A stretch of DNA of 64,000 nt from a virus (taxonomy: Duplodnaviria; Caudoviricetes), in IMG/VR virus record IMGVR_UViG_3300038300_000071, positions 32,001-96,000 of that record; one strand, 5' to 3'. Both the position numbers and the translations under genes were made by a program. Of the stretch, positions 10,687 through 56,553 are shown piece after piece. Every line of letters starts with the position of its first letter. Positions within the stretch are counted from its first letter, which is position 1. Below the pieces are notes generated by a model. The model was not told the DNA's origin. It searched no databases and worked only from the letters and a program-made list of their open reading frames with translations.

Positions 10687-11208
10687 ATGGCGAAAGTCTC
10701 AGGTGTAAGAAAAGTAGAAACGGAAACAGAATTGCGATCTCTAGTGGATAATGGAAATTCATTAGATAATGAAATAAAGAACTTGCAATTTAAGTCTGAA
10801 GCGATAAAGTCATCTATACTGGATCTGGCAGGCGATGGAATAGGTGAGAATGAAAAATCTATCAGGCTTGTTGCAGAAAGGTCAAATGCTTTATTAACTA
10901 GAACTGAAAAGGTAGAGTTTTCCAAGGATGAGAATTACTTGGACTTGCTAAAAGCTGTTGATGCTGGCGAATCTCCTTTGGAATTAACTTTTAAAAAGGA
11001 ATACAAACTAACAAAAAACATAGATGAAGTATTGGAGTTGTTGGAAGAAAACGGATTGCTTGATTCATTGGATGAAAAAACAACCATCGCAATAAAGCCA
11101 GAAGTTTTTAAAGGAATGAGTAAGACGGGAAAATTACAAAAAGCAATTCAAGACTGCGGTAAAGTAACGCCTTCGTTTAAAATAAAATATGAAATAAGAG
11201 AAGACTAG
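10687..11208 (+). CDS. hypothetical protein
   Basis: 173 aa ORF with RBS. Confidence 0.6.
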   Translation: MAKVSGVRKVETETELRSLVDNGNSLDNEIKNLQFKSEAIKSSILDLAGDGIGENEKSIRLVAERSNALLTRTEKVEFSKDENYLDLLKAVDAGESPLELTFKKEYKLTKNIDEVLELLEENGLLDSLDEKTTIAIKPEVFKGMSKTGKLQKAIQDCGKVTPSFKIKYEIRED

Positions 11209-12922: not shown

Positions 12923-13788
12923 TATTGATGAGATAGGAGATGTGTAAATTGGCATATTCGGAGGAAAATAGAATTGCGGACGAGATAGTAAATGATTTTA
13001 AGCATGGCGATTCTTGGCGGGTAATGAGCCAAGGCGGGAGGTTGACTTTTCTCAGAAGTTGTGAGAATAGCATGGAATTATATCTTTATAATTACATTTG
13101 TCCTTTCTATAAGGTTTCCATGGAGAGTCCTTTGCTTTTTAATTTTTCATATTTATCAAGTCGTAAGATCTCCAAAGCTTTCAAAGTTTATTTGAAAGCT
13201 TTGATGAAGGAGGAAAAGGAAAGAGGGAGGGCTGCAGTGTTGAATGAGTTTAAGGGATTGTATTTGCGGAACAATGATGGAAAGCTTTACCTGTATGATA
13301 AGAAAAAGATTAAATAGTAAAAAGGTTTAATAGTATGAAAAATGACATGACGAAAAAGGAAGCTTCACAGTGAGAAGTTTTAATGTAAATAGGGTTGCTT
13401 GGGATGGAAAGAGGGAGGTTCGCATTGATAATATTCCCAGATTGGATAAGAATCATAGGGATTTTATAGATTATATTGTTGAGAATGGGCATTGCTCTCC
13501 TGATTTTCTTATTAAAAGTAGTAAGAAGTATAAGTCTTCAAGGGAATTGATTAAGGCATCTTTTGGATCTCAGATGGTGTGCAAGAATTATTCTAATCAT
13601 AGAGTTTGGATTTGGTCAATGTCCGACTGGGAAGGAAAGGCTGATTTGTATTTGATGTACTCCGTAAAGGGAATGGGATTTTCTTACAAGGATGGGTCAA
13701 GTACGGATGAAGTGGTAAAGTTATATAAAGAAGTAGTTGATTGTATGAGTAATTTTTTAAATAAATAATAAAAAGAAGGTTGATTTAA

Positions 13789-20441: not shown

Positions 20442-20470
20442 TTGACATGTAGGCAATTAAGAAGTATATT
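20442..20470 (+). promoter_or_regulatory. sigma70-type promoter of tRNA operon 1
   Basis: TTGACA-17 nt-TATATT. Confidence 0.85.
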
Positions 20471-22100: not shown

Positions 22101-22216
22101 CAGTGTATGGCTGATATTGGTTAGGCTCGTCGATATTTATGATTACTAAATACACATTTAATGTGGCGGTGATTTCTATGATCTTCGATATTTGGGTTCG
22201 ATTCCCGAAACACTGA
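22101..22216 (+). ncRNA. tRNA-like RNA with expanded anticodon arm
   Basis: cagtgt/acactg acceptor, D arm, GGTTCGATTCC T arm, roughly 60 nt central domain. Confidence 0.6.
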
Positions 22217-23141: not shown

Positions 23142-23678
23142 ATGGTGGAAGAAATGTCGGTTCGTAAAGTAATATGGTTAACGGGAATGTCTGGTGCGGG
23201 AAAATCAACTATATCTTCAATGCTTGAAGAGAAGCTTTTGGTTAAAGGGTATAGTGTGAAAATACTAGATGGAGATGAAGTCAGGGAAAATCTAACTTCT
23301 GATCTTGGCTTTAGCAAGAAGGACAGAGATGAAAATGTAAAAAGAATTTCTTATGTGGCTAAATGTATATGCGATGTTGACGGGGTGGCCATAGTTGCTG
23401 CTATTTCTCCATACAAGGATGCAAGGCAGAAGGCTATATCTTTAATTGGTGAAGATAACTTTTTAGGAGTTTTTGTCAAGTGTGATATTGATACGCTGAT
23501 AAGCAGAGATGTTAAGGGTTTGTATGAAAAGGCTATTCGTGGTGACATTCCAAATTTCACAGGAATAAGCGATCCTTATGAAGATCCTTTAGGTTTTGAA
23601 GTTGTTTGTAATACAGCGGTAGAGACTATTGAAGAATCGGCAAACAAGATAATCAAGAAGTTGGAAGGTAAATCCTAA
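23142..23678 (+). CDS. cysC: adenylylsulfate kinase
   Basis: WLTGMSGAGKST, LDGDEVR, ISPY, RDVKGLY, FTGISDPYE. Confidence 0.95.
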   Translation: MVEEMSVRKVIWLTGMSGAGKSTISSMLEEKLLVKGYSVKILDGDEVRENLTSDLGFSKKDRDENVKRISYVAKCICDVDGVAIVAAISPYKDARQKAISLIGEDNFLGVFVKCDIDTLISRDVKGLYEKAIRGDIPNFTGISDPYEDPLGFEVVCNTAVETIEESANKIIKKLEGKS

Positions 23679-23981: not shown

Positions 23982-24980
23982 ATGGGATATATCAAGAATC
24001 CTTCTGATAATGGTCAGTTTTGGAGAGAATCAGCGGCTAATGATAGCGCCTCTGTTTGGCATGGTTTTGATAGTAAAAATAACGGTAAAGACAAATTTTT
24101 CAAATCAGAAACATTGCCAAATAATCCAGATACCTTGAAAGAAACTGGAACTGTTTCTTCTAGTGGCGATAGGCTGTTGGCTGGTGTTTATGGAGATATT
24201 CCAAGTGTTTCTCTTTGGACTCCTGAGTCTATTATTACTGACGTTTGGTTTGATGCTTCTGATTCTAGCACCATTACTGAAATTGGGGGCCGAGTTAGTC
24301 AGTTGGATGACAAGAGTAATAATGCTGTACCTCAGAATATTGCTCAAGGGGTTGGATCGGAGCAGCCACAGACAGGAGTTGACACTTTAAATGGTTTGAA
24401 TGTGCTTACATTCGATGAGGCTTTCGATGAGGGTTTACAAAAGAATGGATGGGATAACATCGGTAAAGCGGGTAGTTTTTCTGTCTTTACTGTTGGGAAG
24501 ATGACGTCGAGTACAAATGGAAGCTTCCTAAACCTTCAAGATGATATGCATACTTACAGAAATAGATTTGATCCATATGGAAAGAGAACGTCGAGCAGTG
24601 TTCCAAAGTCCGTCAGTTATACAGAGCCAAGCTCGGCATACATTCTTAACGGAAATGCAAGATATGATGTGAGTCACACACTTCCTGACAGTTATTTCAA
24701 CGTTTTCATAAATGGTACACAAGAGGGTGTTAATGCCTTCTTCGACAATCCATTGCCAGAGAATGCCCCCAGTCCAAGGCTTGCAATGATGACTGCCAAC
24801 AATCCTGCCATTACAAATAGTGGAATAGTTGCAGAAGTTATAATCACCGAGGATATTGATGAAGTGTCTAGACAGAGAGTGGAAGGCTATTTGGCTTGGA
24901 AGTGGGGATTGGTAGACAGTCTTCCATCTAATCACCCTTATAAAAATAAACCTCCATACATTACTAGCGGAAACTTATAG
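23982..24980 (+). CDS. variable-core paralog 1 (putative LamG/ConA-like virion adhesin)
   Basis: Conserved N-term MGYIKNPSDNGQ...KSETLPN and C-term EGYLAWKWG...HPYK. Confidence 0.7.
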   Translation: MGYIKNPSDNGQFWRESAANDSASVWHGFDSKNNGKDKFFKSETLPNNPDTLKETGTVSSSGDRLLAGVYGDIPSVSLWTPESIITDVWFDASDSSTITEIGGRVSQLDDKSNNAVPQNIAQGVGSEQPQTGVDTLNGLNVLTFDEAFDEGLQKNGWDNIGKAGSFSVFTVGKMTSSTNGSFLNLQDDMHTYRNRFDPYGKRTSSSVPKSVSYTEPSSAYILNGNARYDVSHTLPDSYFNVFINGTQEGVNAFFDNPLPENAPSPRLAMMTANNPAITNSGIVAEVIITEDIDEVSRQRVEGYLAWKWGLVDSLPSNHPYKNKPPYITSGNL

Positions 24981-25043
24981 AGATTAGAGATATTTCTTTT
25001 ATAAAATTCATATTGGTAAATAAATGCTAATATGGAGATTCAA

Positions 25044-25985
25044 ATGGGATATATCAAGAATCCTTCTGATAATGGTCAGTTTTGGAGAGAATCAGCGGCT
25101 AATGACAGCGCTTCTGTTTGGCATGGTTTTGATAGTAAGAATAATGGTAAAGACAAATTTTTCAAATCAGAAACATTGCCAAATAATACAAAGGCTTTAA
25201 GTGAGTCTGGGTCTATTGCTTCTAGTGGTAATAGATTAATTGCTGGGGTTTATGGAGATCAAGCTTCTCTTCCTGCAAGTCTTTGGAATCCTTCTCTGAT
25301 GACATCTGTGGGTTGGTACGATGCTGATGATAGTTCTACAATTACAGAGTCTGCTGGAGCTATTAGCCAATGGGATGATAAGTCTGGGAATGACAATCAT
25401 GCTGTTCAGGGCGTTGGAAGCAAACAGCCAATTTACAATGCAAGTGATCCCGTGTTCGGTGGAAAGCCTTCCATATTGGGCGTTTTGGGTGATTATTTAG
25501 AAACTCCATCTATGTCAATAAATAGAATGTATTTAACTTTATATTTGGACGGTGTGGCAACGGCATGGCCAAATCATAATGCGGTAGTATCAGGGCCTTC
25601 TTTCCGTTTAACGGGTAGAGTTGGTGATGTTCACGTATGGGATGGCCCTAGAGACAATAAGAATTTTGATTTTAATGGAAGTACATTTAGGGATGGAAGT
25701 ACTGTTGATGTTAATTACGATCCAACTGGTTTGCCGATGGCGGGTGACATCTTTAGGATAAACGCTGAAAGCACAAAGACTCAAGTTTGGAGGTTGATGG
25801 GGAATACTCAAACATATACAACTTGGCATGGTGGTTTGGCAGAGGTGATATTTACAGACGGATCAGAGGATTTCAACACACAGCAAAAAATAGAAGGTTA
25901 CCTTGCTTGGAAGTGGGGATTTGTGGACAAGTTTCCAGCTGAGCATCCTTACAAGTCAGCTCCTCCATATATAGATGCTTATTAA
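25044..25985 (+). CDS. variable-core paralog 2
   Basis: Same termini; true start is MGYIK at 25044. Confidence 0.7.
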   Translation: MGYIKNPSDNGQFWRESAANDSASVWHGFDSKNNGKDKFFKSETLPNNTKALSESGSIASSGNRLIAGVYGDQASLPASLWNPSLMTSVGWYDADDSSTITESAGAISQWDDKSGNDNHAVQGVGSKQPIYNASDPVFGGKPSILGVLGDYLETPSMSINRMYLTLYLDGVATAWPNHNAVVSGPSFRLTGRVGDVHVWDGPRDNKNFDFNGSTFRDGSTVDVNYDPTGLPMAGDIFRINAESTKTQVWRLMGNTQTYTTWHGGLAEVIFTDGSEDFNTQQKIEGYLAWKWGFVDKFPAEHPYKSAPPYIDAY

Positions 25986-26054
25986 GATCATTTAAAAATT
26001 ATATTTCTTTTATAAAATTCATGTTAGTAAATAAATGCTAATATGGAGATTTAA

Positions 26055-26996
26055 ATGGGATATATCAAGAATCCTTCTGACAATGGTCAGTCTTGGAGAG
26101 AATCAGCCGCTGATAATTCGGCTATCCGTTGGCATGGTTTCGATAGTAAGAATAATGGTAAAGACAAATTTTTCAAATCAGAAACATTACCAAATGATCC
26201 AGACGCACTTGTTGCTGCTGGAGTCAATGCTTCTAGCGGTGATAGACTATTGGCTGGTGTTTATGGAGATATTCCAAGTGTTAATCTTTGGACTCCTGCT
26301 GGAGTCGTTACAGAACTTTGGCTTGATGCCACCGATGCTTCAACTATTACAGAATTATCTGGATCTGTGAGTCAGTGGGATGATAAGAGTGGTAGCGGTA
26401 ACGACTTCCCTCAGGGAAATGCATCCAGACAACCTATAACGGGAGTAAGAACTCTCAATGGCCTAAATGTTCTCGATTTCGATGGTGGTGATAGCATGCA
26501 AAGAGGGAGTTTGGCGAATGTGGCGAATGACTTCATTATGGTAGGAGTTTGGGATGTAGATTCGGGCGCAACACTGTTTTCAGAAACAGGTTCTCCTCAG
26601 GCTTGGAATGCAACAACTGCTGGTCTCACTACGCAATTGGATGGCACTATGCTTTACTCTGGAGGCACGATAAGCGGAGCAACTGTCGTTTCTTTTGATA
26701 TGAATCCTACGGGCCTTAATGCAGAGGCTTTTGTAAACGGAGAAAGTCAGGCAATACTTGCTCTGACGCAAAGCCTTGGAAATAGTACTGCCCGTATAGC
26801 TGCGAACTTTGTTGGCGGTTCTAATGTAGTTGGAGGAATGGGTGAAATGGTTATCTCCGATGACCGATCAGTAGAAACTCGTCAAAAGATCGAAGGATAC
26901 TTGGCTTGGAAGTGGGGTACGGAATCTGATCTTCCAGTTGGACATCCGTATAAGAACAAACCTCCATATATCACTAGTGGAAGTTTATTAGTTTAA
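26055..26996 (+). CDS. variable-core paralog 3
   Basis: Same conserved termini. Confidence 0.7.
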   Translation: MGYIKNPSDNGQSWRESAADNSAIRWHGFDSKNNGKDKFFKSETLPNDPDALVAAGVNASSGDRLLAGVYGDIPSVNLWTPAGVVTELWLDATDASTITELSGSVSQWDDKSGSGNDFPQGNASRQPITGVRTLNGLNVLDFDGGDSMQRGSLANVANDFIMVGVWDVDSGATLFSETGSPQAWNATTAGLTTQLDGTMLYSGGTISGATVVSFDMNPTGLNAEAFVNGESQAILALTQSLGNSTARIAANFVGGSNVVGGMGEMVISDDRSVETRQKIEGYLAWKWGTESDLPVGHPYKNKPPYITSGSLLV

Positions 26997-27054
26997 AAGG
27001 ATATTTCTTTTATAAAATTCATGTTGGTAAATAAGTGCTAATATGGAGATTTAA

Positions 27055-27996
27055 ATGGGATATATCAAGAATCCTTCTGACAACGGACAGTTTTGGAGAG
27101 AATCAGCGGCCAATGATAGTGCTTCTGTTTGGCACGGTTTTGATAGTAAAAATAATGGTAAAGATAAATTTTTCAAATCAGAAACATTGCCAAATGATCC
27201 AAAATCTTTAATTGCATCTGGAGCTATTGCTTCTAGTGGCGATAGATTTTTAGCTGGTGTTTATGGTGATCTTCCAAAAGTTTCTCTTTGGACTCCTGCA
27301 AAAATAGCCACATCTCTTTGGCTGGATGCCTCTGATCCTGCTACAATAACTGAGTCGGTAGGATCGGTCAGTCAGTGGGATGATAAGTCTGGAAATGGTA
27401 ACAATGTAATACAAGCCTCAGGAGTCAATCAGCCAGAAACTGGAGTAAGAGATATTAATGGATTAAACGTTCTTGATTTTGATGGCTCGGACAGCATGAC
27501 AAGAGGGGCTTTGGCGAGCAGATCTGATGATTTCATTGTGGTTGGCGTTTGGTATGTGGATTTTGTTATTTCAAGTCGCAGGAAGAATACGATGTTCGCA
27601 CAATCTGGGATATCTCAAGATTGGAATATGACAACCTCCGATATAGTCTTGCAGAGTGATGGATCTGATGCTTATTCTGGAGGCGTTTTGGCTGGTGTTA
27701 GTAGTATTATTTCTTATGATGTTAATTTTTCTGGATTGAATACTGAGGCTTTTATTAATGGTTCCAGTGAAGCGAATGTTGTGATGTCTCAGTCAGTAGG
27801 AAATTCCACAACAAATATTGGCATAGGGTTTACCGCTTCGAATTTCAATTTTTTCGGAGGTATGGGAGAGATTATTATCTCTAACGATAGATCTGTATCA
27901 ACTCGTCAAAAAATAGAAGGCTATCTTGCTTGGAAGTGGGATCAAGTTTCCAAGCTTCCTGCTGATCATCCTTATAAGAATGTACCACCCTGTTGA
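27055..27996 (+). CDS. variable-core paralog 4
   Basis: Same conserved termini. Confidence 0.7.
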   Translation: MGYIKNPSDNGQFWRESAANDSASVWHGFDSKNNGKDKFFKSETLPNDPKSLIASGAIASSGDRFLAGVYGDLPKVSLWTPAKIATSLWLDASDPATITESVGSVSQWDDKSGNGNNVIQASGVNQPETGVRDINGLNVLDFDGSDSMTRGALASRSDDFIVVGVWYVDFVISSRRKNTMFAQSGISQDWNMTTSDIVLQSDGSDAYSGGVLAGVSSIISYDVNFSGLNTEAFINGSSEANVVMSQSVGNSTTNIGIGFTASNFNFFGGMGEIIISNDRSVSTRQKIEGYLAWKWDQVSKLPADHPYKNVPPC

Positions 27997-28041
27997 TGGT
28001 GGTTGACTGAATCTTTATAAATACTAACATGGAGTTTTTAA

Positions 28042-28986
28042 ATGGGATATATCAAGAATCCTTCTGACAATGGTCAGTCTTGGAGAGAATCAGCGGCCAA
28101 TGATAGCGCTTCTATCTGGCATGGTTTCGATAGTAAGAATAATGGTAAAGACAAATTCTTTAAATCAGAAACATTGCCCAATGGTACAAAGGCTTTAAGT
28201 GAGTCTGGGTCTATTGCTTCTAGTGGTAATAGATTATTAGCTGGTGTTTATGGTAATCAATCTTCACTTCCTGCAAGCCTTTGGACTCCTAACAATATAA
28301 CTACATCAGCTTGGTTTGATGCTTCTGATGCGTCAACTATCACAGAGTCTGCCAATAAAGTTTCTCAATGGGATGATAAAAGTGGAAATAGCAAACACGC
28401 TGTGCAAGCAACTGGATCTCAACAACCGACCTATAAGCCTACCGATGCTAATATGAATGGGATGGGTAGTATCGGAGTTACAAGTAATACTGGAGCGAAA
28501 GGATTAGAAGTACCATCATTCGGAGCGAAGATTTGCTATACAGTCATTAGAAATGACAACGCCAACTTCTCATCATTCGATGTGCTGCTTGCAGGTGCGC
28601 TTGATAGATACCTTGTTCGTGGTAGTTCAGGAACTCCAGACTTCTATACTATCGGAACTCTTGAGTTCAATGATTTTACATATAAGAATGGTTCCACGGT
28701 AAGCACGGCCTTAAACGTACTTCCAATGCCGACAGCAACGATTTTCAAATTTGAAAGTGCCGCAATAAGAGAGCAGACATGGAGTTTCGGGTTTGGTAAT
28801 CAATGGGCTGGCAATAATAGAACATGGGATGGTGCTTATTCAGAGTTTATATTTACAGATGGAACTGAGGACTTATCTACACAGCAAAAGATCGAAGGAT
28901 ACCTAGCTTGGAAATGGGGAACAGAAGCTTCATTGCCTGTTAGTCATCCTTACAAGTCAGCTCCTCCATATATAGATGCTTATTAA
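28042..28986 (+). CDS. variable-core paralog 5
   Basis: Same conserved termini. Confidence 0.7.
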   Translation: MGYIKNPSDNGQSWRESAANDSASIWHGFDSKNNGKDKFFKSETLPNGTKALSESGSIASSGNRLLAGVYGNQSSLPASLWTPNNITTSAWFDASDASTITESANKVSQWDDKSGNSKHAVQATGSQQPTYKPTDANMNGMGSIGVTSNTGAKGLEVPSFGAKICYTVIRNDNANFSSFDVLLAGALDRYLVRGSSGTPDFYTIGTLEFNDFTYKNGSTVSTALNVLPMPTATIFKFESAAIREQTWSFGFGNQWAGNNRTWDGAYSEFIFTDGTEDLSTQQKIEGYLAWKWGTEASLPVSHPYKSAPPYIDAY

Positions 28987-29044
28987 TAGGATATTTCTTT
29001 TATAACTTTGTATTAGTAAATAAATGCTAACGTGGAGATTTTAA

Positions 29045-30076
29045 ATGGGATATATCAAGAATCCTTCTGACAATGGTCAGTTTTGGAGAGAATCAGCGGC
29101 TAATGATAGCGCTTCTATCTGGCATGGTTTCGATAGTAAGAATAATGGTAAAGACAAATTTTTCAAATCAGAGACATTGCCAAATGATCCAGCCGCACTT
29201 TCTGCCGCTGGAGTTAATGCTTCCAATGGAGATAGATTTTTAGCTGGTGTTTATGGAGATCAGTCTTCACTTCCTGCAAGCCTTTGGAATCCCGCTGAAA
29301 TATCCACTGAAGCTTGGTTCGATGCCAATGATGCTTCAACTATTACAGAATCAGCAGGAGCTGTAAGTCAGTGGGATGACAAGTCTGGCAATGTAAGAAA
29401 TCTTATTAACGCAACTGGCGTTCAACAGCCAATGACTGGAATTAGAACAATAGGCGGTTTAAACGCCCTAGATGCCGACGGGGTTACTCAACACCTATAT
29501 AACATTACAAACTTTGCATTTCCTGCCAGTGGAAACTTTATGGTGTTTGCGGTTGCAGTAGTAGACTCTTGCAGTGACAGAAATCAAGCTATATGGGCTT
29601 GGGATGATGATGTTGATATACAACTTGATAGTGCGCAAAACATTAATGAGTTCAGAGGTCGATTGTTTAACACTGACCCGACAAATCAAAACTTGCTATA
29701 CTCAACTAGCGACCCTGCACCATCTGGCTCAGTTATCGGACTAGACACGATGTGGACTACGGTCATGGACTTCACCGCAACGGAGAGTCACTTATATCGG
29801 AACGGACTTAATAGTGTGCTTAATCCAACAAAACTATATGCTAACAAGGTAACTAGTACTGGATTGCAACAGTTTACTGCGTTTCTAGGTGGATTCCCTA
29901 TTGCGTTTACTCATTTGCTTGATGGCGCAATAGGAGAGTTGCTTATGGTAGAAGGAACTGACACTATTACTCAACAAAAGATGGAAGGCTATCTTGCTTG
30001 GAAGTGGGGACTAGTCGCTAAACTCCCATCTGGTCATCCTTACAAGTCAGCTCCTCCATATATAGATGCTTATTAA
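29045..30076 (+). CDS. variable-core paralog 6
   Basis: Same conserved termini. Confidence 0.7.
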   Translation: MGYIKNPSDNGQFWRESAANDSASIWHGFDSKNNGKDKFFKSETLPNDPAALSAAGVNASNGDRFLAGVYGDQSSLPASLWNPAEISTEAWFDANDASTITESAGAVSQWDDKSGNVRNLINATGVQQPMTGIRTIGGLNALDADGVTQHLYNITNFAFPASGNFMVFAVAVVDSCSDRNQAIWAWDDDVDIQLDSAQNINEFRGRLFNTDPTNQNLLYSTSDPAPSGSVIGLDTMWTTVMDFTATESHLYRNGLNSVLNPTKLYANKVTSTGLQQFTAFLGGFPIAFTHLLDGAIGELLMVEGTDTITQQKMEGYLAWKWGLVAKLPSGHPYKSAPPYIDAY

Positions 30077-31245: not shown

Positions 31246-31320
31246 GTATTCATAGCTTAATGGTAAAGCGCAGTAGCAAATTGTATGAGCAAGATGTTGG
31301 TTCGATTCCAGCTGAATACG
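31246..31320 (+). ncRNA. tRNA-like RNA with aberrant anticodon arm
   Basis: Perfect acceptor, D and T arms; anticodon arm closes only a 5-nt loop. Confidence 0.55.
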
Positions 31321-34950: not shown

Positions 34951-36123
34951 ATGATTGTATACAAGTGTTTAAAAACATTCTTCTGCTCGCAGCTTAAAAG
35001 ATATATAGCTATAGATGCGATTGTTTATAGGTATGAGAATTCCACTAAGATAAATATAAATGGCTCTCCTTATACTGACTCAACAACTCAAGTTACATCA
35101 AACAGTTGGGAATTCGAAGATGAAACAGAAGTAACATGGTTCTACGAGCTTGAACCAGCTCCGAAAGGAACGTCTCTGTCAGGATTTTTTGAGTTTGTAA
35201 CGTATCTTCCAGAAGATGAAGCAGGCGGTGGTATTGGGGCTGGAACTGGCCCTGCTGGAGATATGATTTACATTGGGGATATTTTAGTTAGTGGAGATTT
35301 CCCAGATCTAATCGATAGAAGAATAGGCGATGTGTATCTAGTAGAAGCTCCCGTAACAGATCCAGAAACTGGTAATGATTATACTAATAATCAAACAATC
35401 ATGTGGGATGGGACTGAGTACGTAATTATAGGATTGTCTGATATTGAGGCAACTTCGTCAAATGAAAGAATAATAGAGCAGACTGCTCATGGATTCTCTC
35501 TTGGGGATATTGTAAGAATAGATTCGGTAACTGATTCATATGTTCTTGCGCAGTCTGATACTGATGTCAATTCGGAAGCAGCAGGAATGGTTACATTTAT
35601 AACAGACGTAGATCATTTTACCCTTACGACAGATGGATATTTTGACTTAACTGGATCTGGAGCCTCTGCGCTTCCTCTGGATATAGGATGTGTTTATTTC
35701 TTAAGCACAACCGTCGCAGGAGGAGTTCAGTTGACCTCTCCTAGTTTTGTTGGACAAATAACAAAGCCAATATTCTTATCTGAAACTGCAAACACTGGTT
35801 ACATTAGAATAATGAGAGGAGTTGAAATACTTCCTGCTCCTACAATTGTAGATGATGAATCTGACAGTGGTTACTTGGATATTGGTGATGCTAGAATTCA
35901 GTGGGGAAGAACTTCTTCAACTTTAGATACTGGCGAAACAATAGCATTCAATGTTCCGTTTGGAGTTGTGCCAGTTGTAACGACCACTTTAGAGCATCTT
36001 GGAAGCGAGGGCGGTGGAATATCAAGCATTACTGTTAATGACTTTATATATAATAGAGATGATGCTGTGGCAAATCCGGCATTTATTCATTGGCATGCTG
36101 TTGGTAAAAAGCCTATAGTGTAA
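34951..36123 (+). CDS. putative tail fiber-like protein
   Basis: AHGFSLGD repeat-type segment and C-terminal IQWG...W.A.G gp53-like tip. Confidence 0.55.
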   Translation: MIVYKCLKTFFCSQLKRYIAIDAIVYRYENSTKININGSPYTDSTTQVTSNSWEFEDETEVTWFYELEPAPKGTSLSGFFEFVTYLPEDEAGGGIGAGTGPAGDMIYIGDILVSGDFPDLIDRRIGDVYLVEAPVTDPETGNDYTNNQTIMWDGTEYVIIGLSDIEATSSNERIIEQTAHGFSLGDIVRIDSVTDSYVLAQSDTDVNSEAAGMVTFITDVDHFTLTTDGYFDLTGSGASALPLDIGCVYFLSTTVAGGVQLTSPSFVGQITKPIFLSETANTGYIRIMRGVEILPAPTIVDDESDSGYLDIGDARIQWGRTSSTLDTGETIAFNVPFGVVPVVTTTLEHLGSEGGGISSITVNDFIYNRDDAVANPAFIHWHAVGKKPIV

Positions 36124-36140: not shown

Positions 36141-36169
36141 TTGACATGTAAAGAAGTTAGAAGTATACT
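36141..36169 (+). promoter_or_regulatory. sigma70-type promoter of tRNA operon 3
   Basis: TTGACA-17 nt-TATACT. Confidence 0.85.
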
Positions 36170-36206
36170 GTAGTTATAAATTTAAAAAAATTAATGAGTA
36201 GATATA

Positions 36207-36287
36207 ATGAAAAGCCAAGTGATAGTCATAGATAGAGTGAGACGACAGGATTCTGATCGTCAAGTTCTGCGTGTGTCTAATGGCTAA
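36207..36287 (+). CDS. attenuator leader peptide 3 (MKSQVIVIDRVRRQDSDRQVLRVSNG)
   Basis: Q/V/I(ATA)/D/R codons match the downstream tRNAs. Confidence 0.85.
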   Translation: MKSQVIVIDRVRRQDSDRQVLRVSNG

Positions 36288-36309
36288 GTTATAAATCTAC
36301 ATTATTTTT

Positions 36310-36349
36310 AAAAAGCCCTTAGATGTAAAAATCTAAGGGCTTTTTTTTT
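36310..36349 (+). terminator. attenuator terminator 3
   Basis: agcccttagat-gtaaaa-atctaagggct plus T run. Confidence 0.88.
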
Positions 36350-36395
36350 GGATTGATTTGACTTAGTATGAAAGAAGGATAAAGTAAGTAAATAA

Positions 36396-36469
36396 GCACG
36401 AGTAGCTCAATTGGTTAGAGCATCTGGTTTACACCCAGAAGGTTGTGGGTTCGAGTCCCTCTTCGTGTA
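36396..36469 (+). tRNA. tRNA-Val(TAC)
   Basis: tctgg-tt-TAC-ac-ccaga. Confidence 0.92.
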
Positions 36470-36478
36470 TTTAAAGAG

Positions 36479-36551
36479 GCAGCTATGGTGAAATGGATTA
36501 TCACCTTTCTCTACGAAAGAAAAGTTCTGAGTTCGAATCTCAGTAGCTGTA
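36479..36551 (+). tRNA. tRNA-Arg(ACG)
   Basis: tttct-ct-ACG-aa-agaaa. Confidence 0.9.
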
Positions 36552-36627
36552 TTAAAAGTGAAAGAAAGTTAGAATGATAGATTGAAATATTTACAATAGG
36601 ATGTAGTGTAGTTAAAGAAATTTTAAT

Positions 36628-36821
36628 CGATGGATAACTCAATTGGTATGAAGTGAAGAACAGAAAGATATTCTAGAATGTCTTCCTGTAAGTAGCGTAA
36701 TTATTAGATTACTTTTTAGTAGGGTTTGATTCCCTAACTTGATTCGTCAAGATTGTAATCTAATTAGAGTGCCTAGAGTTGTATCTAGGAAGTGGAGGTT
36801 CGAGTCCTTCTCCATCGGCCA
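36628..36821 (+). ncRNA. tRNA-like RNA with roughly 115 nt D-loop insertion and 8-nt anticodon loop, ending GCCA
   Basis: cgatgga/tccatcg acceptor, actc...gagt D stem, T arm, encoded CCA. Confidence 0.6.
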
Positions 36822-36847
36822 TTTTAAAGAAAGAAAAGAATATGTAT

Positions 36848-36922
36848 GCTCCGGTAGCTCAGTTGGATTAGAGCATCTGCCTTCTAAGCAGAAAGTCCTT
36901 GGTTCGAGTCCAAGTCGGAGTA
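36848..36922 (+). tRNA. tRNA-Arg(TCT)
   Basis: tctgc-ct-TCT-aa-gcaga. Confidence 0.95.
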
Positions 36923-37308
36923 CTTTTAAGAAAGTAAGGAAAGAAGATGGAATATGTTATTAAGACAGGAATTTATTACTTTATGTTTTCAGGATTGCAC
37001 ACATGTACTACAAATTGTATAGAAGGTGCAACTAAGATTACTAATATAAATCATCTGAATAAAATGCTGAAATATGTCAGTACGAAATTTGAAGATGTGT
37101 CTTACGAGAAGGTGTAGAAATGAAAGAGATTTATCACTGTTCTTTGACCCGTATGGAAGATCTTTTGAATGCAGTAGATGAAGGATGTTTGTATGTGTAT
37201 GATACTTTCCCCGCATCGTCTTGGAGGGAGAAAGAAGATGAAAGAATGAGAGGGAAGCTGGAAAGACACTTTTCTGGAAAAGGAGATTGATGTAAAGAAT
37301 AAATTTAA

Positions 37309-37382
37309 GGGATTTTAGCTCAGTTGGTTAGAGCGGCGCTCTCATAAAGCGAAGGTCGTGGGTTCGAGTCCCTCAAGTCCCA
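37309..37382 (+). tRNA. tRNA-CAT, probably Ile2 (lysidine, reads AUA)
   Basis: ct-CAT-aa loop, GGG acceptor start; leader 3 uses only ATA Ile codons and has no internal Met. Confidence 0.8.
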
Positions 37383-37440
37383 CTTAGCAAGTGAAATGAT
37401 TAATGTGTGATAAAGAATATTATAGATGGAAAGTAGTTCT

Positions 37441-37823: not shown

Positions 37824-37897
37824 GGCGATGTAGCTCAATTGGCTAGAGCACTGCCCTGTCACGGCAGACGTTGCGGGTTCGAATCCCGTCATTGCCG
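37824..37897 (+). tRNA. tRNA-Asp(GTC)
   Basis: ctgcc-ct-GTC-ac-ggcag, G73. Confidence 0.95.
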
Positions 37898-38114
37898 CTT
37901 TTAAGTAAAGGAAGGTGTTATGGAAGTTAAAGCAGAAAGATTCTATAGGGATCAGATACGATTGGGACTTTATAAGCTACCAAGTGGATGGTTGGATAAG
38001 TTTGATAGAATATATGGCTCTGTCGAAAAAGTACCTGTTGATAAGTTGGATTCAGCTTTAGGTTTGGTAGAGAGAAGTTTGTTAAGTTTAAAAATTAAAT
38101 AGTAGGTTGAGTTT

Positions 38115-38666
38115 ATGTTTGTAGAATCAGGTGATCATGTTCATAGTTTTGGTTGGATTGGAGTTCCTATTGAAGGAACTCAAAAGGATATGCTGTTGTC
38201 GATAGCGAATAAGATAGACAAGGAAGATTTATTCGAAGAAGACGATGATACTGGAATCGAAGAAGATAGCCATGTGACAGTTCTTTATGGAGTTCATGAT
38301 AAACAGAATTTCAAAGTAAAGGCATTGCTTGGATCTGTATTGCAAATGAATGGAGAGCTTGTAGGACTTCATATATTTGAAAATGAAAGATATGATGTTT
38401 TGGTCGTTAAGGTTGAAAGCGAAGACCTGAAAGATTTAAACAAAAAGTTGAAAGACGGTCTTAAGTATACTAATGACTATCCAGAATATAAGGCACATGC
38501 TACAGTCGCATACCTGAAGTCTGGAACAGGGAAAAAGTATGTAGAAGATTTTAAGAAAGTCGATTGCGTGTTTGATAGAGTTTTTTACAACAATTCTGAC
38601 AATACGCACAACGAGAAGATTGAGCTTAAGAAGAATGACATTGATGAAATGTTGAAAGGAATTTAA
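38115..38666 (+). CDS. 2H phosphoesterase, Acb1/T4 gp57B-like
   Basis: HVTVLYG and YKAHATVAY HxT motifs. Confidence 0.75.
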   Translation: MFVESGDHVHSFGWIGVPIEGTQKDMLLSIANKIDKEDLFEEDDDTGIEEDSHVTVLYGVHDKQNFKVKALLGSVLQMNGELVGLHIFENERYDVLVVKVESEDLKDLNKKLKDGLKYTNDYPEYKAHATVAYLKSGTGKKYVEDFKKVDCVFDRVFYNNSDNTHNEKIELKKNDIDEMLKGI

Positions 38667-38676
38667 AAGTATTCAT

Positions 38677-38748
38677 TGCTCTGTGGTGTAATTGGTAACA
38701 CTTTGCCTTTTGACGGCAACATTACAGGTTCAAGCCCTGTCGGAGCAT
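38677..38748 (+). tRNA. tRNA-Gln(TTG)
   Basis: U1:A72, ttgcc-tt-TTG-ac-ggcaa. Confidence 0.9.
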
Positions 38749-47283: not shown

Positions 47284-47356
47284 AAGTATGTAGCTCAATT
47301 GGTAGAGCATCTGAATCATAATCAGAATGTTGCAGGTTCGAGTCCTGTCATGCTTA
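47284..47356 (+). tRNA. tRNA-Met(CAT), elongator type
   Basis: tctga-at-CAT-aa-tcaga; paired 1:72, no GGG/CCC anticodon stem. Confidence 0.8.
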
Positions 47357-49059: not shown

Positions 49060-49169
49060 GCCGGAGTAGCTTAATTGGTTAGAGCATAAGTGAAGCGCAT
49101 CATCGGAGACTAGTTAATCCTTTGTTGCTAGTATCTTAAAGGTTGCAGGTTCAAGTCCTGCCTCCGGCA
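49060..49169 (+). ncRNA. tRNA-like RNA with roughly 40 nt insert replacing the anticodon loop
   Basis: Perfect acceptor, D and T arms; no 7-nt anticodon loop. Confidence 0.65.
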
Positions 49170-49350: not shown

Positions 49351-49986
49351 ATGATTAGTCATAAACATAAGTTTATTTTTTCGCATGTTCCCAAGGTTGC
49401 TGGAACATCGATAGAGATTTCTTTAAGGCCATATGATGATTCTGGCTTTAAGTGGGGATTAAGGAATGATGATTTGGGAAATGCGATTGCAAATCATAAG
49501 GATTATTTTGTATTTGGATTTGTTAGAAATCCTTATGACAGGTTGGTATCGGCGTGGAAGATGTCGAAGGTAAATGGAAAGCATGATATGCCATTTAGGG
49601 ATTATGTGACGTGTGTTGGCAAATTCCTATCTCATGATTATGAAACGTTGATAAAGTTGTACAGAAGTAATAAGTGTTGGAAGAATGGATATCCTTTGAC
49701 GATGAAGGATGCGGGATTTTTAGACCCTGTTCATGATAAGTATCATACTGTATATCAGTGGAACTTTACTTATGGTTGTAAGTTTGTAGGAAGGTATGAG
49801 CGTTTGGATGATGATTTTAAATTGGTATGTGAAGTATTAAAGTTGAATGTTGATGATCTTCGGAGGGGAAATAAGTCTGGGGATGGCAGCAATTACAAAG
49901 AGCATTATGATAAAAATTTGCAATCTCAGGTGTATGAAATGTACAAGCAAGATTTCTTAATGTTTGGTTATCAATACAAGCTGTAG
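49351..49986 (+). CDS. sulfotransferase family 2 protein
   Basis: HVPKVAGTS (5'-PSB), FVRNPYDRLVS (3'-PB), D...FGY. Confidence 0.88.
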   Translation: MISHKHKFIFSHVPKVAGTSIEISLRPYDDSGFKWGLRNDDLGNAIANHKDYFVFGFVRNPYDRLVSAWKMSKVNGKHDMPFRDYVTCVGKFLSHDYETLIKLYRSNKCWKNGYPLTMKDAGFLDPVHDKYHTVYQWNFTYGCKFVGRYERLDDDFKLVCEVLKLNVDDLRRGNKSGDGSNYKEHYDKNLQSQVYEMYKQDFLMFGYQYKL

Positions 49987-53759: not shown

Positions 53760-53788
53760 TGGACAATATTAGTTTCATGCGCTATAAT
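53760..53788 (+). promoter_or_regulatory. sigma70-type promoter
   Basis: TGGACA-17 nt-TATAAT upstream of the odd tRNA. Confidence 0.65.
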
Positions 53789-53859: not shown

Positions 53860-53946
53860 GGATATATAGCTCAGCGGCCAGAGCAGAAGGATTCTAACCC
53901 TTTGGTAGTCGAAAGGCAGGCGCAGGTTCGATTCCTGTTATATCCT
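53860..53946 (+). tRNA. tRNA with ATTCTAAC loop: possible amber suppressor (CTA) or 8-nt-loop tRNA, long variable arm
   Basis: ggatata/tatatcc acceptor, D and T arms; gaagg-attctaac-ccttt. Confidence 0.6.
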
Positions 53947-56303: not shown

Positions 56304-56532
56304 GCCTTGGTAGCTCAATTGGCGTAGAAGGTGAATTATGTATTCGGTGTTTAATAATTGCAATTGTTAATCGGAGAATATATATGAAGCATCTGCACTC
56401 CAACTAATATAAAGGTTTAAGAGTTGGTTATAGAGCGCTGAATTGTGAAGACTGTGAGAGAAAGGCCTTTTAAAGTATCTTATAGAAGTAGCAAATATTC
56501 AGAGGTTTGAGGTTCGAACCCTCACCAAGGCA
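56304..56532 (+). ncRNA. giant tRNA-like RNA with insertions in both D loop and anticodon loop
   Basis: gccttgg/ccaaggc-A acceptor, gctc...gagc D stem, ctgaat...attcag stem, tgaggTTCGAACcctca T arm. Confidence 0.65.
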
Positions 56533-56553
56533 CTTTTAAAAATATAAAAAATA

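Follow-up and report, generated by a model that had tools for sequence, protein, structure and literature searches.

Two questions are raised by a short open reading frame (ORF), called leader 3 here, in the virus record IMGVR_UViG_3300038300_000071 of IMG/VR: whether a large phage controls its tRNA genes through the translation of leader peptides, and which of its two tRNAs with a CAT anticodon reads AUA codons. The record is 202 kb long and estimated to be 62% complete. The window, meaning the whole stretch of DNA analysed, comprises 64,000 nucleotides corresponding to bases 32001 to 96000 of the record, and positions refer to the window. All tRNA genes of the record, as called with ARAGORN and Rfam, lie inside the window, in four blocks plus one lone tRNA with a CTA anticodon. 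Control of tRNA genes is generally ascribed to the promoter, with growth rate and the stringent response as its inputs, and phage tRNA arrays are usually viewed as passive codon-usage supplements. A preliminary description of the locus had proposed that leader 3, which precedes the third block, is a sensor of the codons read by the tRNAs of its own block. From sequence, codon statistics and the covariation of leaders with tRNA sets, we conclude that a trp-type ribosome-mediated attenuator very probably controls this tRNA operon.

The same layout, a promoter followed by an ORF of 25-28 codons, a strong terminator and a tRNA block, was observed for all four blocks in the window. The leader 1 promoter (20442-20470) is of the same type as that of leader 3, and the promoters of leaders 2 and 4 are weaker. 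Leader 3 encodes the peptide MKSQVIVIDRVRRQDSDRQVLRVSNG, followed by a stop codon. As first described, 18 of its codons 4-23 specify Gln, Val, Ile, Asp or Arg (three, five, two, three and five codons, respectively), the exceptions being S16 and L21; its Arg codons are AGA (two), CGA (one) and CGT (two), which match the downstream Arg(TCT) and Arg(ACG) tRNAs; and both Ile codons are ATA, whereas leader 1 uses ATT three times. All of these observations were borne out. Under strict wobble rules and with the CAT tRNA ignored, 14 of the 25 internal codons are read by the downstream tRNAs (16 of 25 counting ATA). The strict-wobble codon set of operon 3 makes up 0.167 of phage codon usage, giving a binomial P of 9e-6 for the 14/25 match, and leader 3 alone reaches that match fraction among the 737 ATG-started ORFs of 20-35 codons in the whole 202-kb record. 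The agreement extends to isoacceptors. CGT and CGA, which are read by Arg(ACG), account for three of the five Arg codons of the leader, and CGT, CGC and CGA together make up about 15% of Arg codons genome-wide (P about 0.03). Leader 1 uses mainly GGG and has Gly(TCC) downstream, and leader 4 uses mainly GGC and GGT and has Gly(GCC); likewise, in the sensor blocks, TTA in leader 2 goes with Leu(TAA), and CTA and CTT in leader 4 go with Leu(TAG). When each leader was matched against each operon, the diagonal of the 4x4 matrix held 14, 13, 14 and 14 matching codons and the off-diagonal cells held 0-5.

The RNA of leader 3 contains the mutually exclusive pairings of an attenuator (Table 1). The pairing of 36272-36285 with 36314-36327 at 13 of 14 positions, proposed earlier as an antiterminator, was reproduced; it includes three G-U pairs and has an RNAduplex energy of -11.4 kcal/mol. 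The best duplex between the 5' arm of the terminator and the 60 nt upstream was -11.8, against -6.7 ± 1.9 in 500 dinucleotide shuffles (P=0.012). The corresponding complementarity was significant for leader 1 (P<0.002) and leader 4 (P=0.002), with only P=0.12 for leader 2. The nascent RNA was then folded, in silico only, up to the terminator loop with the position of the ribosome varied. Without a ribosome, the 1:2 pairing formed and the terminator arm was free; with the A site at codon 6 or 10, 12 of the 15 positions of the terminator arm were paired with 36275-36290; with the ribosome at the stop codon, the arm was free again. Rfam contained no known RNA family matching the leader, the best matches being far below threshold, and the T-box covariance model found nothing in the leader and one chance-level match elsewhere (12.9 bits versus a gathering score of 93). 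The first tRNA starts 43 nt past the terminator. Scans from leader 3 to tRNA-Gln found no plus-strand promoter with at least 10 of 12 consensus matches and a single weak terminator-like site. The genes behind the leader are six tRNAs and small ORFs, with no amino-acid biosynthesis or synthetase genes among them.

In the mechanism that we propose, the leader would be transcribed from its own promoter and the nascent RNA would fold in one of two alternative ways. With no ribosome on the transcript, region 1 would pair with region 2 (36280-36307) and the terminator (36310-36345 plus U9) would form; a ribosome reaching the stop codon at 36285 would cover region 2, with the same outcome. A ribosome stalled in the sensor block by a shortage of charged tRNA for Gln, Val, Asp, Arg or Ile (the AUA reader) would occupy region 1 and leave region 2 (36272-36286) free to pair with the 5' arm of the terminator. 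Antitermination would then allow RNA polymerase to read into the Val, Arg(ACG), Arg(TCT), CAT, Asp and Gln tRNA genes. The phage would in this manner make a tRNA set when the codons of that set are decoded slowly, a supply-and-demand loop that plausibly also answers depletion of host tRNAs. Leader translation, switch kinetics and the direction of regulation are inferred.

The design was also sought in other viruses. The large terminase (TerL) places the phage in a big clade of uncultured huge phages, with contigs of up to 548 kb and closest TerL relatives that are 50-60% identical. From a TerL alignment, 24 IMG/VR loci were obtained and tRNA arrays were located in five records, from relatives at about 51-55% TerL identity. 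In four of the five, a strong terminator lies directly before the array and is preceded by a short ORF that tracks its own array. One of these leaders (L031, 4774-4863) has 18 consecutive matching codons for F/A/L/P/V/D/Y/E/W, spelling FALLPVLPVFDAAAYEWL, in front of an array of Tyr, Ala, Val, Glu, Leu, Phe, Asp, Trp and Pro tRNAs. Two others, in L032 (2834-2908, peptide MKTSLSYLYLVSCLFNSNF..., 18 of 23 codons matching, P=6e-6) and L033 (minus strand, 13528-13605, peptide VKQLLSVSLFNVSCYSNSNY..., 17 of 24 codons, P=2e-5), precede Phe, Leu, Ser, Val, Asn, Cys and Tyr tRNAs. Their peptides are alike in composition and not in order, which fits a codon sensor and not a functional peptide. Phe codons keep different company in different leaders, namely Trp and His in those of the window and Ser, Leu and Val in L032 and L033. 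The fourth leader (L035, IMGVR_UViG_3300018080_000129, minus strand, 10894-11013) contains all 20 of the 20 amino acids within 39 residues (P about 0.01) and is followed by an array of about 30 tRNAs; it is a one-switch-for-all version of the design. The segment complementary to the 5' arm of the terminator ends at the stop codon in L032, L033 and L035 and 16 nt before it in L031, and these antiterminators had energies of -15 to -27 kcal/mol (P<0.002, 0.07, <0.002 and 0.01, respectively). In L035 this antiterminator is a perfect 15-bp pairing of -27 kcal/mol that ends at the stop codon of the leader. Because the design recurs in distantly related phages, it is a family and not a single oddity. 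Codon statistics, the 1:2/2:3/3:4 RNA architecture and the way in which the relatives' leaders change with their tRNA sets thus support the reading of each leader as a sensor for its own tRNA block.

Several points count against an attenuator at leader 3. Its Shine-Dalgarno sequence is weak, of the GAG type at -11 to -9; ribosome-binding sites in the window are of Shine-Dalgarno type, and phage genes overall show a G-rich peak at -12 to -9. In equilibrium folds the terminator won every time, so the switch must be kinetic and co-transcriptional. In a model with one ribosome, stalls at codons 14-22 allowed region 1 to pair again with region 2, and a trailing ribosome must therefore be assumed. 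Finally, searches of IMG/VR with the neighbouring proteins (the 390-residue ORF at 34951-36123 and the Acb1-like ORF at 38115-38666) returned no close relatives, so that conservation of leader 3 itself cannot be demonstrated.

The second question concerns the two CAT tRNAs, at 37309 and 47284. Since the sensors are written at the level of codons (AGA for TCT, CGA/CGT for ACG, GGG versus GGY, TTA versus CTN), the two ATA codons of leader 3 would mark the tRNA at 37309 as tRNA-Ile2, and the internal ATG of leader 4 would mark that at 47284 as elongator tRNA-Met. Neither tRNA has the marks of an initiator: position 1 is paired with 72, and the anticodon stem lacks GGG/CCC. A pattern drawn from the D arm, anticodon loop and variable loop of 37309 retrieved 120 bacterial loci, whose CAT tRNAs comprised an fMet type, a large group with C4:G69 and C5:G68, and a C3:G70 group resembling elongator tRNA-Met. 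A Citrobacter tRNA in the C4:G69/C5:G68 group resembles E. coli ileX. In this pattern-limited sample, the bacterial tRNAs nearest to 37309 were from Soehngenia and Tissierella (81% identical), and they fell in the C4:G69/C5:G68 group. These two pairs are determinants of E. coli TilS, and the determinants of TilS differ between bacterial species (PMC12514573).

The criterion of tRNAscan-SE 2 for Ile2 is an isotype-specific model score above that for Met (PMC8450103). Here, a position-specific score was built from 79 C4:G69/C5:G68 tRNAs and 21 C3:G70 Met-type tRNAs, with positions 3-5 and 68-70 excluded, and it classified 97 of 100 correctly in leave-one-out testing. The tRNA at 37309 scored +9.4 and that at 47284 scored -9.0, on a biased sample in which the ranges overlap (-0.5 to 27.6 for the Ile2 type and -27.9 to 11.3 for the Met type). 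Divergent tRNAs of any kind score negative, so the positive score of 37309 means more than the negative score of 47284. The best E. coli matches to 37309 were tRNA-Ile genes adjoining tRNA-Ala, and for 47284 E. coli offered no telling match. A blastn comparison with annotated phages returned mixed labels (Met, Lys, Asp) and was uninformative. The phage uses ATA at 29.2 and ATT at 30.1 per 1000 codons, and the record contains no tRNA with a TAT anticodon; besides the putative reader at 37309, it encodes no AUA reader.

The arrangement of the tRNA genes bears on the same question. Same-anticodon duplicates of the phage (Pro, Asn and Thr) each lie as a pair within one operon, and the two CAT tRNAs lie in different operons, like isoacceptors that read different codons, which agrees with an Ile2 assignment of 37309. 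The divergence of the two CAT tRNAs from each other (66% identical) had also been considered as an argument and was dropped, as true duplicates in the phage are equally divergent (58-73% identical).

A scan of IMG/VR for Ile2-like tRNAs, followed by an automatic search for a terminator, a short ORF and tRNAs, led to further ATA-containing leaders. On a 31-kb contig that is not shown to be related to the phage (L242, IMGVR_UViG_3300025684_000617), a leader on the minus strand at 1282-1356, MRLLNNIELNLRRLE..., contains the block R L L N N I(ATA) E L N L R R L E, that is, one ATA in an otherwise fully matched run of 14 codons. It is followed by tRNAs for Glu, Asn, Leu(TAA), Arg(TCT), a CAT tRNA scoring +17.1 and Leu(TAG), and its antiterminator has an energy of -18.5 kcal/mol (P=0.003). 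The attenuator design may therefore not be confined to huge phages. This contig also has a promoter, which completes the sequence of promoter, leader, terminator and tRNAs. A further leader with two ATA codons (L188) precedes an operon with a C4:G69/C5:G68 CAT tRNA; its terminator is weak and its antiterminator is not significant, and it is suggestive only. Among eight ATA-less leaders examined, none preceded an operon with an Ile2-type tRNA. The leader before the 27-tRNA array of L030 (IMGVR_UViG_3300029288_000063, 2271-2443) was not counted as support, its frame being unsettled: the frame with two ATA codons continues into the 5' arm of a terminator that is very strong (-28.5 kcal/mol), and the alternative frame, which does fit the architecture, contains no Ile codon and shows no significant codon match.

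The assignment of 37309 has points against it as well. The tRNA lacks C4:G69 and C5:G68, having A4-U69 and U5.G68 instead. In our own reading of the cloverleaf it has G29:C41 and not C29:G41, and a G27.A43 mismatch; a U50.U64 mismatch is also present. No match to PF01171, the TilS family, was found in the 62%-complete record, so that a host enzyme would be required. The training set of the classifier was collected with a pattern from 37309 itself, and its labels are acceptor-stem rules, not experiments. There are only two Ile codons in the leader, and synonymous choice alone would yield two ATA codons about 19% of the time; moreover, the A of the second (A36230) is also paired in a predicted long hairpin, so RNA structure could have fixed this ATA. 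The operon of L030 holds an Ile2-type CAT tRNA and a TAT tRNA, yet its likeliest leader has no Ile codon, and the rule may thus run one way, an ATA in the leader implying a reader in the operon. As the TilS determinants vary by species, the absent acceptor pairs weaken the case for Ile2 and do not refute it.

The strongest competitor to the Ile2 assignment accepts the attenuator and makes 37309 a second elongator tRNA-Met, the ATA codons being non-cognate fillers or kept for RNA pairing. Fillers of this kind do occur, as sensor blocks tolerate non-cognate codons (T in leader 1; E, N and V in leader 4), and the pairing of A36230 gives one of the two codons a structural role. The absent acceptor pairs and the lack of a TilS match in the record fit a Met tRNA too, as does the existence of same-anticodon duplicates as divergent as the CAT pair. 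Against this reading, each of the three true duplicates lies within a single operon; leader 4 has an internal ATG and leader 3 has none, and every cognate amino acid of leader 3 occurs at least twice. Both the classifier and the nearest neighbours group 37309 with Ile2-type tRNAs, and in L242 an ATA lies in a fully matched block in front of an Ile2-type CAT tRNA. Without an Ile2 tRNA, ATA at 29 per 1000 codons would have no phage-encoded reader, despite the coverage of at least 19 of the 20 amino acids. A second Met tRNA is for these reasons unlikely, and 37309 is judged to be tRNA-Ile2 with good probability, its C34 presumably modified to lysidine and the tRNA charged with Ile. The attenuator and this assignment are also probable jointly, if slightly less so than the assignment taken by itself. 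The preliminary description had predicted 37309 to be Ile2 and 47284 to be Met. The elongator type of 37309 and its place on the Ile2 side of our improvised classifier agree with this, but the acceptor pairs of E. coli-type TilS substrates are absent; the naming of 47284 as Met agrees with the internal ATG of leader 4 and with the Met side of the classifier, though a negative score is weak evidence, and both identities are best given as probable.

A quite improbable alternative is a switch that is reversed or not specific for codons and reports only whether the leader is translated, whether as general capacity or as transcription-translation coupling. Any ribosome on the 5' half of the leader would open the 1:2 hairpin, antitermination in the folds depended on a covered region 1 (the ribosome-binding site and first codons), and the default without translation is termination. 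An on/off sensor, however, needs no operon-specific codon sets that track the downstream tRNAs in five phages, and in most leaders the antiterminator arm abuts the stop codon, as if a finishing ribosome restored termination, which favours the codon-specific attenuator. Very improbable indeed is an untranslated ORF within an RNA-only element (T-box-like or protein-binding) or before a leaky terminator, with a coincidental codon match: the Shine-Dalgarno sequence is weak, but the match (P=9e-6) is seen in each of the four leaders and again in relatives whose amino-acid sets differ, Rfam has no T-box or other family in the leader, and a frame-specific pattern would have no meaning in an unread frame.

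Closest in design to the codon-specific attenuator proposed here are the multivalent leaders of ilvGMEDA (Ile/Leu/Val) and thr (Thr/Ile), together with the single-amino-acid prototypes trpL and hisL. The enterobacterial and phage leaders share a promoter, a short ORF of regulatory codons, mutually exclusive 1:2/2:3/3:4 pairings and a terminator before the first regulated gene, and in ilv and thr, as in the phage, one leader samples several amino acids. The pairing energies of leader 3 resemble those of the trp leader. The phage leaders differ from the enterobacterial ones in that their targets are tRNAs and not biosynthetic enzymes, that the sensor spells out the codons of different co-transcribed tRNAs, up to five or more of them, down to the level of isoacceptors, that region 1 includes the ribosome-binding site and start codon, and that they are viral and occur once per tRNA block. 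To our knowledge, all described leader-peptide attenuators control amino-acid biosynthesis or synthetase genes. In the pheM leader of E. coli pheST, leader-peptide attenuation matches one part of the translation machinery to how much charged tRNA is available. This system is the closest in regulating the translation apparatus, but it acts on a synthetase operon, responds to a single amino acid and belongs to a cell; in the phage, the tRNA is itself the product of the operon, and the feedback loop is thereby closed directly. T-box elements likewise have competing terminators and antiterminators, act on translation-related genes and respond to tRNA charging, as is proposed for the phage leader, but they bind uncharged tRNA directly and need no translation, and the phage leader has no T-box match. 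With bacterial tRNA-Ile2, in which TilS converts C34 to lysidine (phage copies included), 37309 shares the elongator type and CAT anticodon, with a D arm, anticodon loop (CUCAUAA), variable loop and T arm near those of Clostridia-type Ile2 (81%); it differs in lacking C4:G69 and C5:G68 and in its G27.A43 mismatch. A full-text literature search found no description of leader-peptide attenuation of tRNA genes. A viral leader-peptide attenuator aimed at tRNA genes, with a sensor that lists the codons of the co-transcribed tRNAs, would be novel.

More broadly, the four leaders and those of the relatives lead us to favour, with moderate confidence, the view that the tRNA genes of large phages are organised into several feedback circuits addressed by codon, each block being opened only when ribosomes slow on the codons that it serves. 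An attenuator listing codons would be direct, per-codon feedback on tRNA supply, a textbook mechanism with a new target, and predictions follow on when phages make tRNAs, for example upon depletion of particular host tRNAs. If true, this would allow the phage to substitute for precisely the host tRNAs that become scarce or that, for instance, anticodon nucleases have destroyed. The leaders would also be a readable key to the decoding by phage tRNAs, including CAT tRNAs that read AUA, and ambiguous phage tRNAs could be annotated from sequence alone; here the leader predicts that one CAT tRNA of two is the AUA reader, in agreement with an independent comparison of sequences.

Table 1. Features of leader 3 and of the third tRNA block (positions in the window).
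Feature	Position	Strand	Remarks
Sigma-70-type promoter	36141-36169	+	TTGACA, 17-nt spacer, TATACT; 11 of 12 consensus matches; predicted transcript start near 36177
Region 1 (protector): ribosome-binding site, start codon, first codons	36190-36218	+	Pairs with 36280-36307, -16.3 kcal/mol
Leader ORF, 26 codons plus TAA	36207-36287	+	ATG start; sensor block, codons 4-23, at 36216-36275
Region 2 (antiterminator 5' arm): last sense codons up to stop codon	36272-36286	+	Pairs with 36313-36327, -12.4 kcal/mol
Intrinsic terminator (regions 3 and 4)	36310-36353	+	15-bp stem, 6-nt loop, U9 tail; 3:4 pairing -21.7 kcal/mol
tRNA-Val(TAC)	36396-36469	+	ARAGORN, Rfam
tRNA-Arg(ACG)	36479-36551	+	ARAGORN, Rfam
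tRNA-Arg(TCT)	36848-36923	+	ARAGORN, Rfam
Elongator-type CAT tRNA, probable tRNA-Ile2 (AUA reader after C34 modification)	37309-37383	+	
tRNA-Asp(GTC)	37824-37898	+	ARAGORN, Rfam
tRNA-Gln(TTG), last tRNA of the block	38677-38748	+	

Several other elements were observed within the third block. Between Arg(ACG) and Arg(TCT) lies a tRNA-like element (36629-36812). Its acceptor stem has 7 bp (CGATGGA / TCCATCG), its G-CCA end is encoded and its T arm is good. An insertion of about 125 nt occupies the place of its D loop, and its anticodon hairpin is non-canonical, with UUGUA in the loop; the Rfam tRNA match reaches only 15 bits (36750-36818), and the z-score of the fold is -1.6. Between the Asp and Gln tRNAs, a 183-residue ORF (38115-38666) matches Pfam Acb1 (anti-CBASS; E=2e-9) and the 2'-5' RNA ligase/2H phosphoesterase superfamily, and it would be co-transcribed with the tRNAs of the block.

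In the window as a whole, which has a G+C content of 37%, the tRNAs cover at least 19 of the 20 amino acids, Tyr solely through an atypical candidate. This element (31246-31320) has an Rfam tRNA match of 47 bits, was missed by ARAGORN and has an anticodon-arm region of 21 nt, versus the usual 17, that contains TTGTATG. It may be the Tyr tRNA of block 2, because four Tyr codons occur in leader 2 and a regular Tyr tRNA is missing behind it. The lone tRNA with the CTA anticodon, an amber reader with a long variable arm (53860-53946), has its own near-consensus promoter (53760-53788), with no leader ORF and no terminator. TAG is the stop codon of 28 of the 162 long ORFs, and that of leader 1 is TAG with an in-frame TGA directly after it. 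A further tRNA-like gene with an insertion, at 49060-49169, has an Rfam tRNA match of 110 nt and 51.8 bits, and two more insert-bearing tRNA-like genes were predicted by the intron mode of ARAGORN at 22101-22216 and 56304-56533, with inserts of 26 and 155 nt. An APS kinase and a sulfotransferase-family ORF (23142-23678 and 49351-49986) lie in or near tRNA blocks, and six tandem ORFs, each encoding about 315-340 residues, occupy the region between blocks 1 and 2 (23982-30076).

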